DNA from: Brevundimonas sp.
Lineage (GTDB): Bacteria > Pseudomonadota > Alphaproteobacteria > Caulobacterales > Caulobacteraceae
Length of the DNA: 64,000 bases
Direction: 5' to 3' (one strand)
Assembly (NCBI RefSeq): GCF_004296955.1
Contig: NZ_SCVB01000055.1
A program made the position numbers and the translations under genes. A model generated the notes under the pieces. The model saw nothing but the letters and a program-made list of their open reading frames with translations. It had not been told where the DNA came from and made no database searches. Shown in pieces: positions 49,209 to 55,771 of the stretch. Positions within the stretch are counted from its first letter, which is position 1. Each line of letters starts with the position of its first letter.

Positions 49209-50909
49209 GTGCTGACCGCCCTCTCCATCCGCGACATCGTGCTGGTCGATGTGCTGGACCTCGAGGTCGACGGCGGCCTGACCGTCCTGACCGGCGAGAC
49301 CGGGGCCGGCAAGTCGATCATCCTCGACGCCCTCGGCCTCGCCCTTGGCGCGCGGGCCGACGCCGGCCTGGTGCGGGCGGGAGCCAAACAGGCCTCGGCC
49401 ACCGCCGTCTTCACCGCCCCCGACGACCCGGCCCTGATCGCCATGATCAGCGAGCGGGGCTTCGACGTCGCGCCCGGCGAGGACCTCATCCTGCGCCGGA
49501 CGCTCGCCGCCGACGGCCGCAGCCGCGCCTTCGTCAACGACCAGCCGGCGGGGGTGACCGCCCTGCGCGAGATCGGCCAGGCCCTGGTCGAGGTCCACGG
49601 CCAGCACGAGACCGTCGGCCTGCTGGACTGGAAGACCCACCGCGCCCTGCTCGACGCCTACGGCGGCCTGCAGCCCCAGCTGGACGGCGTCGCCGCCGCC
49701 GCCGAAAAGCTCAAGGCCGCCGAACGCACGGTCTCCGACCTCAAGGCCGCCGCCGCCGACGCCGCCTCGCGGGCCGAGGAACTGACGCAGAACCTCACCG
49801 ACCTCGACGACCTCGACCCGCGCGCCGACGAGGAGACCGAACTGGCCGGCGAACGGGCCATCCTCGGCGCCGCCGAAAAGGCCGTCGCCGACCTCGCCGA
49901 CGCCCGCGCCTCCCTGGGCGGGGACAAGCTGTCCCAGAAGCTGTCGGCCGCCCTGCGCGCGGTCGAGCACGCCCGCACCCGGGCCGGGCAGGCGGGCACG
50001 GACCCCGAACACCCCCTGCTGCAGAAACTGGCCGCCGCCGCCGAGGCCATCGACCGCACCATGGTCGAGGCGGAAGAGGCCATCGCCTGCGTCGACGCCG
50101 CCGCCAACGCCTTCGACTTCGAGCCCGGCCGCCTCGACAAGGCCGAGGAGCGGCTGTTCGCCCTGCGCGCCGCCGCCCGCAAGCTGAACACGTCCGTCGA
50201 CAGCCTGCCCGTCCTGCGCGTCCGTTTCCGCGAACAGCTGCGGCTGATCGAGGACGGCGCCGAGGCCATCAGCGTCGCCGAACGCGCCGCCTCCGCCGCG
50301 CGCGAGGCTTATGACGTCGCCGCCATGCTGCTGACCTCGGCGCGGGAAGCCGCCGCCGACCGGCTGACCGCCGCCGTGATGGAGGAACTGGCCCCGCTGA
50401 AACTGGAGCGCGCCCGCTTCCGCGTCGCCTTCGAGCCCGTCGCCGAGGGCCGTCGCGGCCCGCTGGGCGTCGAGACCGTCCGCTTCGAGATCGCCACCAA
50501 CGCCGGGACCGCCTTCGGCCCGCTGGACGCCATCGCCTCGGGCGGCGAACTGGCCCGTTTCGCCCTCGCCATGAAGGCGGCCCTGGCGGGGCGCGAGGAC
50601 CAGCGCCAGCCGGTGATGATCTTCGACGAGGTCGACCAGGGCGTCGGCGGCGCCGTCGCCTCCGCCGTCGGGGCGCGGCTTGAGCGGCTGGCGCACGGCG
50701 CCCAGGTGCTGGTCGTGACCCACAGCCCCCAGGTCGCCGCCCGCGGCCACGCCCACTGGAAGGTCCGCAAGGCCGACGCCGGCGGGGTGACCACCACCAC
50801 CGTCGATACGCTGGACGACGAGGCGCGGCGCGAGGAGATCGCGCGGATGCTGTCGGGCGCGGTGGTCACCGACGAGGCGCGCGCGGCGGCGCGGTCGCTG
50901 ATCGGGTGA
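49209..50909 (+). CDS. recN: DNA repair protein RecN
   Basis: LTGETGAGKS, VHGQHE, ASGGELAR..LA.K, IFDEVDQGVGG, VTHSPQVAA. Confidence 0.98.
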   Translation: MLTALSIRDIVLVDVLDLEVDGGLTVLTGETGAGKSIILDALGLALGARADAGLVRAGAKQASATAVFTAPDDPALIAMISERGFDVAPGEDLILRRTLAADGRSRAFVNDQPAGVTALREIGQALVEVHGQHETVGLLDWKTHRALLDAYGGLQPQLDGVAAAAEKLKAAERTVSDLKAAAADAASRAEELTQNLTDLDDLDPRADEETELAGERAILGAAEKAVADLADARASLGGDKLSQKLSAALRAVEHARTRAGQAGTDPEHPLLQKLAAAAEAIDRTMVEAEEAIACVDAAANAFDFEPGRLDKAEERLFALRAAARKLNTSVDSLPVLRVRFREQLRLIEDGAEAISVAERAASAAREAYDVAAMLLTSAREAAADRLTAAVMEELAPLKLERARFRVAFEPVAEGRRGPLGVETVRFEIATNAGTAFGPLDAIASGGELARFALAMKAALAGREDQRQPVMIFDEVDQGVGGAVASAVGARLERLAHGAQVLVVTHSPQVAARGHAHWKVRKADAGGVTTTTVDTLDDEARREEIARMLSGAVVTDEARAAARSLIG

Positions 50910-51024
50910 CCCGGTAGCGGCCGTGTGTGTTGCTGAAAGCGGACGGTCCGGAGGTCGGCTATGGGGGGTTAGCGGACATGGAGGAGCGTTTGCTGCCGAC
51001 TCCTAGAGCGAATATAGCCGGGAT

Positions 51025-51342
51025 ATGGAAGTCGCTCTCATATTCCTGCTCACGATCAGCTTCGGGGTGGCCTCGATCGCCCTGACCTTGGCGACTGTGT
51101 CGCGCATCAGTCGCTGGGCGGAGGGGCGTTACGTCCCGAACCTAGGGAAAAACAGGGCGGCGATGCGCATGATCCCGAAGGCGCAACTAATCGCGGTCTA
51201 CCTCGCGTTCGCGCTCGTCCTTTTTGCGTTCCTCGCTTGGAATTGGTCTGCCGGGTCGGTGAAATCTGCTAGCGCCATCTTGGGTCTAATCGCGCTCGTC
51301 TATATCGGCTGGTTCTCGATCCGGTGGCGACATCTCCGATGA
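51025..51342 (+). CDS. Small 3-TM hypothetical protein (cassette 1)
   Basis: 105 aa, atypical codons; TTGCTG-N17-TATAGC-N6-ATG suggests a leaderless transcript. Confidence 0.7.
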   Translation: MEVALIFLLTISFGVASIALTLATVSRISRWAEGRYVPNLGKNRAAMRMIPKAQLIAVYLAFALVLFAFLAWNWSAGSVKSASAILGLIALVYIGWFSIRWRHLR

Positions 51343-51418
51343 GCCACATTTGAGACCCTGCTCACGGCAACGTCTGACGTCCGCAATGGGTCGGAAGCAG
51401 ACAACGCCGCATGGGTAG

Positions 51419-51631
51419 CTAGCGGACGACCTCGTCGCGCTGCTTCTGCTTGAACGAGCGGAAACCCACCATCCAGTTGAACGCCATGAGCAGAAACCAA
51501 GCCGCCCAAGCGGGCCACCAGTTCGTCATCAGGATTGGGACGAGAACCACCACGAAGGCACCGAGGTTCAGCCTCATCAGCCACCTCGGTGTGCGATCTC
51601 GCATGTGATAGGCGACATCCATGATGCTCAT
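51419..51631 (-). CDS. Small 2-TM hypothetical protein (cassette 2)
   Basis: 70 aa, Trp-rich and hydrophobic; stop codon inside a hairpin unit. Confidence 0.65.
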   Translation of the reverse strand: MSIMDVAYHMRDRTPRWLMRLNLGAFVVVLVPILMTNWWPAWAAWFLLMAFNWMVGFRSFKQKQRDEVVR

Positions 51632-51707
51632 GCGGCCTTATCCCCCGTGAGCCGCAATGTCCGCAATGGGTCGGGAGCGGACTGTCGCGTGAGAGTGGGT
51701 AGCGAAC

Positions 51708-51968
51708 CTATCCGATCCGGTTCGCAATGTGGGTGCGGTAGCGTCGCTCCACTGCCGTGCCCGTCTGATAAAGCGCCAGCCCAATGAGAATGAAGGCGGC
51801 TCCGCCGGCCAAGTTCACCGCCCACAGCTTCATGTCATTCGAACGCATGAGCCAAGGTAGATTGGTCATTGTGATGAGGATGGCGACAACTGCGAAGGCG
51901 ACACCGAACCATCGCATCCAAGCGATTATGAACAGATAGTAGTTCTGGATCGAAGTCGGCTTTGCCAT
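51708..51968 (-). CDS. Small 2-TM hypothetical protein (cassette 3)
   Basis: 86 aa from MAKPTSIQNYYLF; stop abuts a hairpin unit. Confidence 0.7.
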   Translation of the reverse strand: MAKPTSIQNYYLFIIAWMRWFGVAFAVVAILITMTNLPWLMRSNDMKLWAVNLAGGAAFILIGLALYQTGTAVERRYRTHIANRIG

Positions 51969-52051
51969 TCCGATAATGTGAACGACACCTCGGCGGATGC
52001 CAACGTCCGCAATGGGCCGGGAGCGGACGGTCGCCTGAGGGCAGGAAGCGG

Positions 52052-52312
52052 TCATTCGCCGCCGTCGCTCAGGTCGAGGCCGCTACTCTCGTGTCGCCCT
52101 GATCTGTGGTTCCGGCGCTCGAACACGGCGCCAATGACCGCGCACACACCGAAGACCGCCAGGGCGGCATAGGCGACCGGACTGTCCGCCCGTCCTGTAA
52201 GGACACAAAACAGGCCGACAGCCCAGGCGGGCCACGCCACGCCGACAACCAAAACCCTCAGCCACAGGGGCAGAGACCGCAACCATGCTGCAACGGATGT
52301 TTTGGTCGCCAT
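52052..52312 (-). CDS. Small 2-TM hypothetical protein (cassette 4)
   Basis: 86 aa from MATKTSVAAW; stop overlaps the end of a hairpin unit. Confidence 0.68.
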   Translation of the reverse strand: MATKTSVAAWLRSLPLWLRVLVVGVAWPAWAVGLFCVLTGRADSPVAYAALAVFGVCAVIGAVFERRNHRSGRHESSGLDLSDGGE

Positions 52313-52423
52313 AGCTACAGCTTGGAGGTGGGGCCGGGACGCCCGCAACGCCCTGAAACCCGACGGTTACGCCCGCGCGGCCAGACGACAGTCCCTTCGC
52401 CGGCCGAACGGACCTGAACAACG

Positions 52424-53809
52424 CTATTCCTTCGCCTTGGCCGACCCCTTCGTGGCCCGCTCCACCACGGCCTTGCCGGCGTCGGTCTGGGCCAGCCCCT
52501 CCAGCATCGCGCCGAGGGCCTGGCCGCCCTTCGCGCTGAACACGTCGGTGATGCTGTTCATGCCCGCGGGCACGTCGCCGCCGGTCACGATCACCTTGAT
52601 GTCGGCCTCGCTCAGCGCCTGGGCCTGGGCGACGCCCACGGTCTGCCCGGCCTTGATCTGCTCCACGCGCACCAGATAGGTCTGGTAGCCCTCGTTGCCG
52701 CCGATCTCCCGGGCCAGTTCGATCTGCGTCGAGACCGGCGCCAGAAGCAGCAGCCGCTCGGCCTCGGCGCGGCTCTGGCCCTGCGCCAGCAAGCCTTCGG
52801 CGTCGAGCTTCTGCTGCGCCAGGGTGCCCTGCGCGACCAGCTCCAGCCGCTGGCGCTCCGCCTCGGCGGAGATGACCTGCTGCTGGCGCTGGCCCTCGGC
52901 CCGGATGACCGTGACCTCGCGCTCCTGCGCGGCCTGGACCTCCGCGACCCCCTTTGCGATGTCGGCGGCGCGCGTATCGGCGACCAGCTTCACATCCATC
53001 TCGCGTTCGGTGGTGACCTTCTGGGCGACCAGAACCTCCTGCTCGGCGACCTGTTTGGCGATGCCGACCTGCTTTTCCTGCTCGGCCGTGCGCATGCCGA
53101 CCTGCTGCAGGGCGTCCTGCTGGTTCACCTCGACGATGCGCTCGGCCTCGATTTCCTTGGTCCGGGCCATCTGGCTGTTCATCGCCACGGCTTCGCGGCT
53201 CTCGCGGTCGATGCGGGATTTTTCCTTCGCCATGATGTTGGCGATGACCTGGGAATTGGCGCTGTCGCGGATGTCCATGAACTCGATGTTCTTGACCGTC
53301 TCCACGCCCCACGCCTGAAGCTGGTTGTCCACCTGGGCGGTGAAGGCCTCGGCCAGGGTCGATCGGGCTTCGAGGATGTCCTCGAGCTTGTGGGTGGCCA
53401 GAACGTTGCGGACGGCGCCCTGGAGAATGCCGGACAGCTGGTGCTGCAGTTCGTCGAAATTGGCGACCTTCTCCGCCGCCGTGTCCGACTTGGCGATCCG
53501 CATGAAGGCCTGCACGTCGACGCGGAACGGCAGGCGCCCGGTGTCGTAGGCCTCGTAGTCCTTCAGGTTCACGTCAAAGATGGAGACCGGAAATTTGGTC
53601 ACCAGCACGCCGATGCTGGGCAGGAAGGCCGGCCACTCATAGTAGACGTTTCCGGCTTCCTGACTGGCGCCGTAGCTGACGCGCGAGCGGCCGCGCTGGA
53701 CGATGTGAACCTCGTTGGTCGGGACCACCCGGCGCAGAACCAGCGCAATCAGGAATCCAAAGGCGAACACGCCGAGCGCGACGCCGCCGGCAACGAAATA
53801 CATGATCAT
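52424..53809 (-). CDS. SPFH/flotillin-family protein
   Basis: N-terminal TM, RRVVPTNEVHIV, SPFH-like domain, Ala/Glu/Gln-rich coiled coil; GGGGGA RBS before ATG 53809. Confidence 0.88.
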   Translation of the reverse strand: MIMYFVAGGVALGVFAFGFLIALVLRRVVPTNEVHIVQRGRSRVSYGASQEAGNVYYEWPAFLPSIGVLVTKFPVSIFDVNLKDYEAYDTGRLPFRVDVQAFMRIAKSDTAAEKVANFDELQHQLSGILQGAVRNVLATHKLEDILEARSTLAEAFTAQVDNQLQAWGVETVKNIEFMDIRDSANSQVIANIMAKEKSRIDRESREAVAMNSQMARTKEIEAERIVEVNQQDALQQVGMRTAEQEKQVGIAKQVAEQEVLVAQKVTTEREMDVKLVADTRAADIAKGVAEVQAAQEREVTVIRAEGQRQQQVISAEAERQRLELVAQGTLAQQKLDAEGLLAQGQSRAEAERLLLLAPVSTQIELAREIGGNEGYQTYLVRVEQIKAGQTVGVAQAQALSEADIKVIVTGGDVPAGMNSITDVFSAKGGQALGAMLEGLAQTDAGKAVVERATKGSAKAKE

Positions 53810-54045
53810 GGAATCCCCCGATACTCGCCGGACTATGTCCACAAAACCCGGGCGTCGCAACTATCGCGGGAGGCTGCCCGCCGGCGGCTCGCTCCTGGCC
53901 GCCTTGACGTGAAGGCCAGCAGAGACGGTCGGCTCAGGCTCACATGTCCGCAATGGCGGCGGACGTCGCGCGTTCGGCGGATCCCCGACTTTCGGCGGCC
54001 TGTCGATCGCCTCGACCCGCCGCGCTCCTGATCTTCCCCGTAGGG

Positions 54046-54477
54046 TCAGACCAGGTCGGCGGGGCGGTGGTAATGTTTTTCCGCATCATGCAATATATTC
54101 AACAAGATGCTCACGACCTGTGCGGCCGTTCCGTCCTGGGTGACGATGTTGAAGGCCTGTTGACTGAGCGGAGTCCGGTCGGGTCTGGCCATGGCCCAGC
54201 TCGGGAACAGGCGTTGTTTGATCGGCCACTCATTCAGGACGATGACATCCTTGTGTCTCTTGTCCGCCCTGATGCGCGTCATGAGTTCGTCCAGCTTTTG
54301 AGCGTCACCTTCGAGCACTTGAACGAATTTGCCATCCGGGTGAGCGAGGCAGCCCGTGATCTTGTCTCGCCGGTTGTTTCTGACCGAGCTCGTGAATATT
54401 GCATCGAGCGCAGCGACGTCATCGTCGGCTATGGTCGCCGTGCTCCTGTAAACGATCCGCCGCAGAGATTTCGTCAT
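54046..54477 (-). CDS. Stand-alone BLUF blue-light photoreceptor
   Basis: IVYRS (Tyr), RNNRR..ITG (Asn), FVQVLEG (Gln), D.RH, F..WAM (Trp/Met). Confidence 0.92.
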   Translation of the reverse strand: MTKSLRRIVYRSTATIADDDVAALDAIFTSSVRNNRRDKITGCLAHPDGKFVQVLEGDAQKLDELMTRIRADKRHKDVIVLNEWPIKQRLFPSWAMARPDRTPLSQQAFNIVTQDGTAAQVVSILLNILHDAEKHYHRPADLV

Positions 54478-54967
54478 GAGGAGATCCTTCCGGGCGCCTG
54501 CAGACCCAGGTTGGGACCCTAGGCGCCAAGCGGGCTCTCTCAATGACCTGGATCAAGCCGTCCCTGATCGGTCCAGGCGGGCGGGCGCCGGGGTCCGCGC
54601 CGAAGGCCGGAAATCCCCTCCGCCCAGGTGTGTATTCCCGCCCCGTGTCTTCTCGCCCCTTGAGGACCGCGATGCGCCACTTCCGCCCCTCCGGCGCGCG
54701 CCGGAATCGGTCCCGCGACCGTTTCTGACGCAGGCCCGTGCATAATGGTGAAATGCCCGCCGGGCCTGGGTCTTTGACATTGCATGAACCGTCGCCGCCA
54801 CCGCCAAGGGGCCGGCGAAGCGTCCTCAGCGGGCGATGCCTGACTGGCGGACTTCCCAGCCGACATTTTTTGTCCGGAATGCGAGACTCTCTGCCCTTCG
54901 GTTGAAGGCCGCGAGGTTGCTGATCCGGCAGTGCGCGTCCCTTCTCCGGCAAGGGGAAAAGGAAGAC

Positions 54968-55771
54968 CTACCCCCGCAGGACCTTCAGCAGCTGCGGATG
55001 CAGCTCCGAGTTCGTCGCCAGGATCTGGGCCCCCGTCTCGGGCCGGCCCTCGCCGTCGATGGTGGTGACCACGCCGCCCGCCTCGGTGACGAACAAAATG
55101 CCCGCGGCCACGTCCCAGGGGCTCAGGTTGCGCTCGTAGTAGGCGTCGTACCGCCCCGCGGCGACCCAGGCGAAGTCCAGCGCCGCCGAACCCAGCCGGC
55201 GGATGCCGGCGACGCGCTGGCCGACGGCGTGGATGTCCTTGATGGCCTGGGCATGCCCCGTCTTGCCGATGAACGGCAGGCCGGTGGCGATCAGGCTTTC
55301 CGACAGATCGCGCCGGCCGGCGACGCGGATGCGCTGGTCGTTCAGATAGCAGCCCTTGCCCTTCTCGGCCCAGAACAGCTCGTTCATGACGGGGTTGTAG
55401 GTCACGCCGGCGACGATCTCGGACGACCCGTCCGGCGCCGTGCGCTGCAGCCCCACCGTGATGGCGAAATGGGGCATGGCGTGCATGAAGTTGGTGGTGC
55501 CGTCGATCGGGTCGACGATCCACATGTGGGACTTGTCCGTCCCCTCGATCATGCCGCGCTCCTCGCCCAGGAAGCCGTAGCCGGGGCGGGCCTTCATCAG
55601 CAGTTCGTAGAGGGTGTCCTCGGCCCGGATGTCGGCGGCGGTGACGAAGTCGCCGGGCCCCTTGCGCGAGACCTGCAGCTGGGCGACCTCGCCGAAGTCG
55701 CGCAGCATGGGCCGGGCGGTCTTGCGGACCGCGTCCAGCATGACGGTGACGAGGGCGGAAGCGAGGGCCAT
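54968..55771 (-). CDS. suhB: Inositol monophosphatase family protein SuhB
   Basis: RDFGEV..LQVSRKGPGDFVT, GEE, WIVDPIDGTTNF, RRLGSAALD, WDVAAG. Confidence 0.95.
   Translation of the reverse strand: MALASALVTVMLDAVRKTARPMLRDFGEVAQLQVSRKGPGDFVTAADIRAEDTLYELLMKARPGYGFLGEERGMIEGTDKSHMWIVDPIDGTTNFMHAMPHFAITVGLQRTAPDGSSEIVAGVTYNPVMNELFWAEKGKGCYLNDQRIRVAGRRDLSESLIATGLPFIGKTGHAQAIKDIHAVGQRVAGIRRLGSAALDFAWVAAGRYDAYYERNLSPWDVAAGILFVTEAGGVVTTIDGEGRPETGAQILATNSELHPQLLKVLRG

Follow-up and report, generated by a model that had tools for sequence, protein, structure and literature searches.

The variable region between recN and the inositol monophosphatase gene

The window analysed here is a stretch of 64,000 nucleotides from contig NZ_SCVB01000055.1 of Brevundimonas sp. 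(NCBI RefSeq assembly GCF_004296955.1). Between recN and an inositol monophosphatase gene it contains a variable region of 3.6 kb (span given as 50935-54611), which is divided into one-gene segments by 49-nt sites that are all co-oriented. These sites, the genes between them and the way in which the genes may be exchanged are the subject of this study. The conserved left flank is recN (49209..50909, plus strand; Pfam SMC_N), whose orthologues in 80 Brevundimonas loci share 70-96% amino acid (aa) identity, and the conserved right flank is the inositol monophosphatase gene (54968..55771, minus strand; Pfam Inositol_P). The GC content is 0.57-0.60 in the 1.5-kb island between recN and a gene of the SPFH/Band 7 type and 0.70-0.76 in the flanks. 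In the following, G000 denotes the genome of the window, C with a number one of its contigs, G with any other number another genome and L with a number a collected locus.

Each full site consists of two units of 24-25 nt, namely unit A with the sequence GTCCGCwwTGGGTCGGrAGCGGAC and a weaker copy of it, unit B (nGTCGCCTGAGGGTGGaaAGCGGAC). The array starts directly after recN with a partial copy (repeat 0; 50935..50977, plus strand; model positions 15-49 in the nhmmer alignment), in which GAAAGCGGAC is followed by one unit ending in TTAGCGGAC. The first open reading frame (ORF) is the plus-orientation cassette ORF1 (51025..51342, plus strand; from the ORF list), which encodes a predicted membrane protein of 105 aa and stops 36 nt upstream of repeat 1 (51379..51427, plus strand; unit A 51379-51402, unit B 51403-51427; 37.8 bits). 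ORF2 (51419..51631, minus strand), coding for a 70-aa predicted membrane protein with homologues at 83-94%, ends with a TAG codon (51419-51421) inside unit B of repeat 1. The TAG codon (51708-51710) of ORF3 (51708..51968, minus strand; 86-aa predicted membrane protein) directly abuts unit B of the near-consensus repeat 2 (51659..51707, plus strand; A+B; 47.7 bits), and the TGA codon (52052-52054) of ORF4 (52052..52312, minus strand, start possibly up to 52348; 86-aa predicted membrane protein) overlaps the end of unit B of repeat 3 (52005..52053, plus strand; A+B; 45.7 bits). No Pfam match was obtained for the small proteins encoded by ORF1 to ORF4.

The flotillin-like SPFH/Band 7 gene (52424..53860, minus strand; Pfam Band_7), an older resident module, is followed downstream of its stop codon by a degenerate cluster of units with a period of about 25 nt (52341..52413, plus strand), which ends in GAACGGAC. 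The flotillin TAG (52424-52426) lies 10 nt from the last unit of this cluster. By itself this unit, ending at 52413, is weak; the relative L063 has a clear A+B site, homologous to this unit, in the corresponding position. All four stop codon positions had been described in an earlier sequence-only reading of the region, and they were reproduced exactly. A degenerate A+B-like site (53946..53990, plus strand; match to GTCCGCAATGGC with one mismatch) lies between the flotillin gene and a BLUF-domain gene (54046..54543, minus strand; Pfam BLUF), which is an extra module without counterpart in close relatives. The right end of the variable region (54593..54611, plus strand) contains a lone GTCCGC (54593-54598), and homology with G132, L058, L135 and L137 resumes at 54607-54630.

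Sequence and distribution of the 49-nt site

A search with an nhmmer profile revealed about 20 good copies of the site in G000, which are clustered in arrays in low-GC islands, many of them at contig ends. In the window, single-gene segments are bounded by co-oriented 24-nt units of the pattern GTCCGCnnnGGGTsGnnAGCnGAC, namely by repeats 0-3 and the degenerate copies. A degenerate form of the unit pattern was found in 109 of 121 Brevundimonas genomes at 0-30 copies per genome, and a reversed control pattern gave essentially none. Outside the genus, the unit is nearly absent. In all DNA collected, comprising 198 repeats, the orientation is uniform in 47 of 49 arrays.

Each unit can form a 6-bp stem; the predicted folds are weak (-7 to -11 kcal/mol, z -0.8 to -2.2). 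Across 115 distinct unit copies, the GGGTCG motif of the "loop" varies as little as the arms do, only 49 of them (43%) have the stem pair 4-21, and there are no compensatory double changes in the stem pairs and hence no base-pair covariation. Moreover, a scan of the island against Rfam returned only chance miRNA matches. Given the weak folds and the lack of covariation, the hairpin was rejected as the selected feature, and the conservation of the site lies in the sequence and not in pairing. Because the loop is invariant, covariation is lacking and the folds are weak, unit A can be read as a conventional double-stranded core-type site of a tyrosine recombinase. In such a site, two inverted arms of 8 bp (GTCCGCww and rAGCnGAC) would surround an 8-bp overlap (TGGGTCGr).

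Packing of the cassettes and position of the stop codons

The collected arrays yielded 123 non-redundant inter-repeat segments, whose inner length has a median of 444 nt, and nearly every one of them contains a single ORF that takes up about 90% of its length. The non-coding DNA per cassette amounts to a median of 35 nt (87 cassettes). For about 80 of 91 cassette proteins, there was no Pfam match. The remaining ones include two GNAT acetyltransferases, SUKH-1, DUF4279 (twice), NADAR, COQ7, SIMPL and Hfx_Cass5, an "integron cassette protein". The cassette content thus resembles that of integrons.

The sequence-only reading had suggested comparing the distances between stop codons and units with shuffled positions. 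For this purpose, 87 non-redundant cassettes whose boundary with the site is exact were taken from many genomes, and the non-coding DNA of each cassette was split at random to give the null distribution. The stop codon is located exactly 1 nt outside the unit in 17 of the 87 cassettes, as compared to a null mean of 4.0, and none of 20,000 simulations reached 17. Within 2 nt of the unit, 32 stop codons were found (null 14), and the median distance is 10 nt. The coincidence between stop codons and units is therefore no chance effect of the window.

However, the earlier comparison with attC cassettes is not supported as it stands. Of the ORFs, 50 lie in the plus and 65 in the minus orientation with respect to the site (p=0.19), and on the coding strand the sequence is T(A/G)A-N-GTCCGC whichever way the ORF points. 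The semi-conserved edges of the site, AAy|GTCCGC...GCGGAC|rTT, give two-thirds of many stop codons; they thereby supply the AA of TAA/TGA to ORFs arriving from either side. Some B units, like the one at ORF2, hold the stop codon inside TTAGCGGAC or CTAGCGGAC. Since the pattern is the same in both orientations, it is symmetric and does not follow a rule of "gene plus 3' site". The stop-on-unit pattern is thus genuine, genus-wide and symmetric, and it is due to the extreme compaction of cassettes that are filled by their ORF to about 90%.

The start codons are slightly closer to the neighbouring units than the 36-59 bp given previously; with the boundaries used here, the gaps measure 27 nt for ORF2, 36 nt for ORF3 and about 28 nt for ORF4 (ATG at 52312). 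In minus-orientation ORFs, the start codon most often lies 26-29 nt from unit A, for instance behind the leader at 51632-51658 of the window. These leaders have no Shine-Dalgarno sequence and carry a TA-rich, -10-like element about 7-12 nt upstream of the ATG. The reverse complement of the edge of unit A reads TTGCGG and is located at about -35, which fits leaderless mRNAs that borrow their -35 box from the site. The dinucleotide AA at unit positions 7-8 is mildly enriched near minus-orientation ORFs, a difference that is not significant (p=0.11 and 0.20). As a hypothesis, unit A might act as donor of the -35 box for leaderless cassette mRNAs.

Cassettes as exchangeable modules

In many Brevundimonas species, recN and the inositol monophosphatase gene are only 9-90 nt apart and form an "empty site". 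In other species, 0.6-7 kb of differing cassettes are present at this position, with or without detectable units. For instance, G132, whose RecN is 96% identical at the amino acid level, is homologous to the window as far as 50977, where the head unit ends, and again from 54612 onwards. The intervening 4 kb of G132 are unrelated to the window and punctuated by the same repeats. The breakpoint at 50977-50982 is common to nine relatives. The flotillin module was found in L055, L063, L135 and L137 at 91-94% nucleotide identity in different surroundings, and its ends in the window are sharp (52377-52422 and 53861-53885). The BLUF gene is part of an insertion of about 730 nt (53875-54606), bounded by the degenerate A+B-like site and the lone GTCCGC described above. 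In L135 and L137, which lack the BLUF gene, the region upstream of the flotillin gene is joined straight to the right anchor.

It had also been proposed to look for the same ORFs in other genomes and to see whether the unit travels with them, and this is indeed the case for ORF2 and ORF3. The ORF2 cassette is present in two metagenome contigs (L191 and L192) with both sites, an identical 27-nt leader and other neighbours, and its stop codon again falls within the site, by 9 nt. For ORF3, 15 homologues were found with 56-99% identity, most of them likewise 86 aa long. The copy in G068 lies in another context with degenerate units on its flanks, and in L189 and L190 the site follows immediately after the stop codon. 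Moreover, identical cassettes occur beside different neighbours within G023 (L018/L021 and L017/L021), at forks between G000 contigs (C10/C77 and C44/C64) and in L038/L145. Taken together, these comparisons of sequences support the view that the gene-plus-site segments are discrete mobile modules and not repeats sprinkled at random. The earlier interpretation of the tight packaging as precise capture rather than chance insertion of repeats thus holds in so far as the modules are discrete, travel with their units and are hypervariable; the identity of the sites with attC and the rule of a site at the 3' end do not hold.

The draft assembly of G000 forks inside unit A (C10:1-127 versus C77:1-127; C44:632-680 versus C64:51-99; C42:171 versus C55:46670), which is why many of its arrays are found at contig ends. 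The forks join one cassette to two neighbours, meaning either that the genome contains cassettes in duplicate or that several strains were mixed in the sample. At C10:475-800, a site consisting of unit A only abuts a reading frame that resembles the catalytic domain of the methylesterase CheB; here the array may have taken the place of the 5' part of the gene or truncated it.

The switch point inside unit A

The position of exchange was mapped by using pairs of sites that share one flank only, which were found within G023, between contigs of G000 and between genomes (about nine informative pairs). In pairs sharing the left flank, the identity extends to positions 15-17 of unit A, and the first difference is found at positions 16-18. 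In pairs sharing the right flank, the last difference is located at position 8, 16 or about 21. These alignments indicate that the switch point is in the centre of unit A, at about positions 9-17, and not at the end of the last unit. With a central switch point, the two ends of each cassette are "...AGCGGAC + unit B" and "GTCCGCwwTGGGTCG". One and the same cassette is preceded by an A-only site in L017 and by an A+B site in L021, with GGAAGCGGAC as common suffix, so that A-by-B events occur too.

A small tyrosine recombinase at the head of arrays

In G023, a tyrosine recombinase ORF of 214 aa stops 1 nt short of an array; most relatives of the protein have a length of 208 aa, and they belong to a very large and highly conserved family. 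The protein matches only the catalytic-domain model Phage_integrase of Pfam. Its best NCBIfam matches are Xer models, far below the cut-off, and no relative was found in the PDB. Of 121 Brevundimonas genomes, 38 contain the recombinase gene, in many cases as a pseudogene. At 23 of 26 loci, its stop codon is followed after 5-50 nt by a co-oriented unit, which frequently heads an array. The order of elements at these loci is the stop codon, a GC-rich hairpin containing GAAAGCGGAC, a 24-nt unit and the cassettes. The array head after recN in the window has the same sequence of GAAAGCGGAC, N and unit, without a recombinase gene. Indeed, the G000 assembly, with a completeness of 93%, does not contain the gene, and the arrays of G000 therefore resemble attC-site clusters that have no integron integrase (CALINs).

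Genomes with an intact recombinase contain more units than the others (9.1 versus 5.2, p=0.019). In the 5-kb flanks of 49 arrays, the only recurrent gene families are the housekeeping genes of the recN locus, and no recombinase is among them. A census of Pfam Phage_integrase proteins in repeat-rich and repeat-poor genomes uncovered no family specific to the former; G005 possesses only XerC, XerD and one other member. Recombinases of 208 aa with about 80% identity also occur in other alphaproteobacterial genera, namely in Chenggangzhangella methanolivorans (L181/L182) and Phenylobacterium (L183-L185). In Phenylobacterium, a unit-like GTCTGCAAGGGGTGG..GCGGAC follows the stop codon of the recombinase in the same layout. 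In Chenggangzhangella, the gene is located between metal-resistance and Fec transport genes. Judging from this arrangement of genes and units, the chances are about even that the 208-aa tyrosine recombinase is the enzyme acting at these sites.

A probable mobile cassette array and its alternatives

In our view, the region at 50935-54611 of the window is best explained, with a probability of roughly 0.68, as an array of mobile one-gene cassettes that belongs to a Brevundimonas-wide, integron-like but non-integron capture system, the recombinase of which is missing here. The cassettes are exchanged at the 49-nt sites by a switch in the middle of unit A. After excision, a circle would restore one complete A+B site and could then enter again at any A site. 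The enzyme would be the 208-aa tyrosine recombinase whose gene lies at the head of arrays in other members of the genus. In G000, where it is absent, cassettes would move only if the enzyme is provided in trans, or by rare homologous events. Several observations weigh against this explanation. No lone unit A that might serve as primary target was found in the "empty" sites between recN and the inositol monophosphatase gene. The small recombinase is lacking not only in G000 but also in the unit-rich genomes G005, G110, G016 and G125, and the link between the enzyme and the number of units is weak. The switch point was deduced from only about nine informative pairs, two of which disagree by one base at position 16. 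Furthermore, the switch window and the longest invariant stretch of the site are one and the same, and homologous or microhomology recombination would tend to resolve there as well.

Some of these observations are what one would expect if there were no dedicated enzyme at all and the 49-nt repeats served as portable homology for RecA-dependent or microhomology-driven shuffling after transformation or transfer by gene transfer agents, with the small recombinase as a passenger beside units. The many unit-rich genomes without the recombinase, the identity of the switch window with the longest identical block (positions 1-16) and the lack of a recombinase recurring in the flanks of the 49 arrays can be explained in this way. 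However, the identity runs do not exceed 15 nt, which is far below the usual length for RecA recombination, and neither the strict co-orientation of 47 of 49 arrays nor the invariance of the loop motif across more than 100 species nor the fixed unit just 3' of the recombinase stop codon in 23 of 26 loci is accounted for. Enzyme-free shuffling is thus unlikely. It is very unlikely that the units are palindromes of the type of repetitive extragenic palindromic sequences or bacterial interspersed mosaic elements (REP/BIME), or RNA hairpins acting as terminators or mRNA stabilisers at 3' ends, that accumulated in AT-richer acquired DNA and lie close to stop codons because of a role at the 3' end of the RNA. 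The position of units directly 3' of stop codons in both orientations and the possible 6-bp stem agree with such a role, whereas the genome encodes neither a REP-associated tyrosine transposase (RAYT) nor another Y1 transposase, Rfam gave no match, the stems are not followed by a T-run, the folds are weak and without covariation, and one stem pair is mostly broken. In addition, the about 20 copies are confined to variable islands and co-oriented rather than alternating, and the pairs with switched flanks indicate exchange at the units. The short inverted repeats at the cassette ends (AGCGGAC ... GTCCGC) and the seeming targeting of one position of a palindromic site would also suit non-autonomous elements of the type of palindrome-associated or miniature inverted-repeat transposable elements (PATE/MITE), which insert in the centre of unit A by means of an HUH or other transposase supplied in trans. 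We regard this idea as highly improbable, as there is no Y1_Tnp gene and no evident target-site duplication, and the sole enzyme physically tied to the units is a tyrosine recombinase.

Finally, the array could be the remnant of a true integron, i.e. a CALIN with unusually short attC sites. The single-ORF cassettes, the stop codons embedded in the site edge as with RYYYAAC and the one cassette protein matching Hfx_Cass5 speak for this possibility, and yet its probability is close to negligible. In G000, the integron integrase model TIGR02249 gave only Xer-like sub-threshold matches, and in the 121 Brevundimonas genomes there was no match at E<=1e-30 in a search that had no positive control. 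An attC site is an imperfect hairpin of 57-141 nt (R''-L''...L'-R') that is folded as a single strand and recombined at G|TT of R'. In contrast, the Brevundimonas site is 49 nt long, consists of two short units with 6-bp arms instead of a long imperfect hairpin and appears to be crossed over centrally, at positions 9-17 of unit A, rather than at the 3' end. Most integron cassettes share one orientation and have the site at their 3' end, whereas the single ORFs of Brevundimonas lie in either orientation. Moreover, integrons, In0 elements and CALINs have been reported as absent from Alphaproteobacteria (Cury et al. 2016, PMC4889954). Membership in the integrons was rejected because the arrays differ in integrase, in the architecture of the site, in the position of the crossover and in ORF orientation, and the likeness to attC cassettes is one of function.

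Relation to known systems

Functionally, integrons and CALINs are the closest known systems. They share with the Brevundimonas arrays the co-oriented, compact and mostly single-ORF cassettes of unknown function together with GNAT- and immunity-type genes, the stop codons often built into the site edge and the hypervariability between close relatives. In both cases, a tyrosine recombinase is found at the array head in some genomes while many arrays have none, and an excised circle would rebuild one full site, as we infer for Brevundimonas. The Brevundimonas recombinase differs from IntI, which is marked by a characteristic extra domain, in that it has 208 aa, matches only a catalytic-domain model and is co-oriented with the array, whereas the integron integrase is divergent. 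Several arrays per Brevundimonas genome are a further difference. A CALIN is defined by at least two attC sites without a nearby integrase; the architecture in G000 is analogous, but the sites are not attC.

Xer-dependent dif modules, such as the pdif modules of Acinetobacter plasmids, and integrative mobile elements exploiting Xer (IMEX) are also discrete gene modules with short core-type sites for a tyrosine recombinase that can be encoded elsewhere. However, the Brevundimonas sites are direct and not alternating, and a dedicated small recombinase is linked to them in other genomes. A probable chromosomal dif site of G000 is located at C46:28636-28663 (ATTTCGCATAA-TATCTC-TTATGCGCATT). The unit does not resemble this candidate and was rejected as a dif-like 11-6-11 site. 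REP/BIME-RAYT systems have in common with the units that short palindromic extragenic repeats often lie just after stop codons. Such systems have many copies, dispersed over core intergenic regions and alternating in orientation within clusters. In contrast to them, the Brevundimonas units are few, occur solely in variable islands, always share one orientation within an array apart from 2 of 49 arrays, and form the borders of exchangeable genes. RAYT (PF01797) gave no match in G000, and controls gave matches. Membership in this group was rejected in view of the missing RAYT, the about 20 clustered copies and the co-orientation of 47 of 49 arrays.

G000 contains a second, unrelated genome-wide repeat, aacaGTGTmTTCyCGCCCCGTATmwTCyCGCCCCT, with about 12 copies and a TATAAT-like core, which may be a promoter or operator. 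The window copy (54625-54665) lies just within the conserved right flank, and others are found at C77:~1170, C13:34964, C23:29233, C52:4960, C61:5570 and 78209, C88:30243 and C106:4569 and 19863. As copies also occur far from arrays, this repeat (GTGTmTTCyCGCCCCGT...) was rejected as an array anchor.

Implications

In textbooks, the integron is the device by which genes are captured and shuffled, and the complete absence of integrons from Alphaproteobacteria has been called "extremely puzzling" (Cury et al. 2016, PMC4889954). In the literature searched, no description of the cassette system reported here was found; apparently, it is undescribed. It is an even bet whether Brevundimonas, and probably other alphaproteobacteria with the 208-aa recombinase such as Phenylobacterium, possess a second, independently built platform for gene capture, in which a minimal tyrosine recombinase acting on double-stranded core sites of 24 bp would excise and insert one-gene cassettes as well as shuffle them in several chromosomal arrays and occupy the niche of integrons. 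If true, gene-cassette platforms would have evolved more than once, and the absence of integrons from Alphaproteobacteria might find an answer. Moreover, the recombinase and its site would be a compact new pair for genetics. The coincidence of stop codons and units would be explained by cassettes that are packed to the base, with site edges doubling as stop codons. Such a system would also explain the small hypervariable islands of Brevundimonas and why draft assemblies break there.

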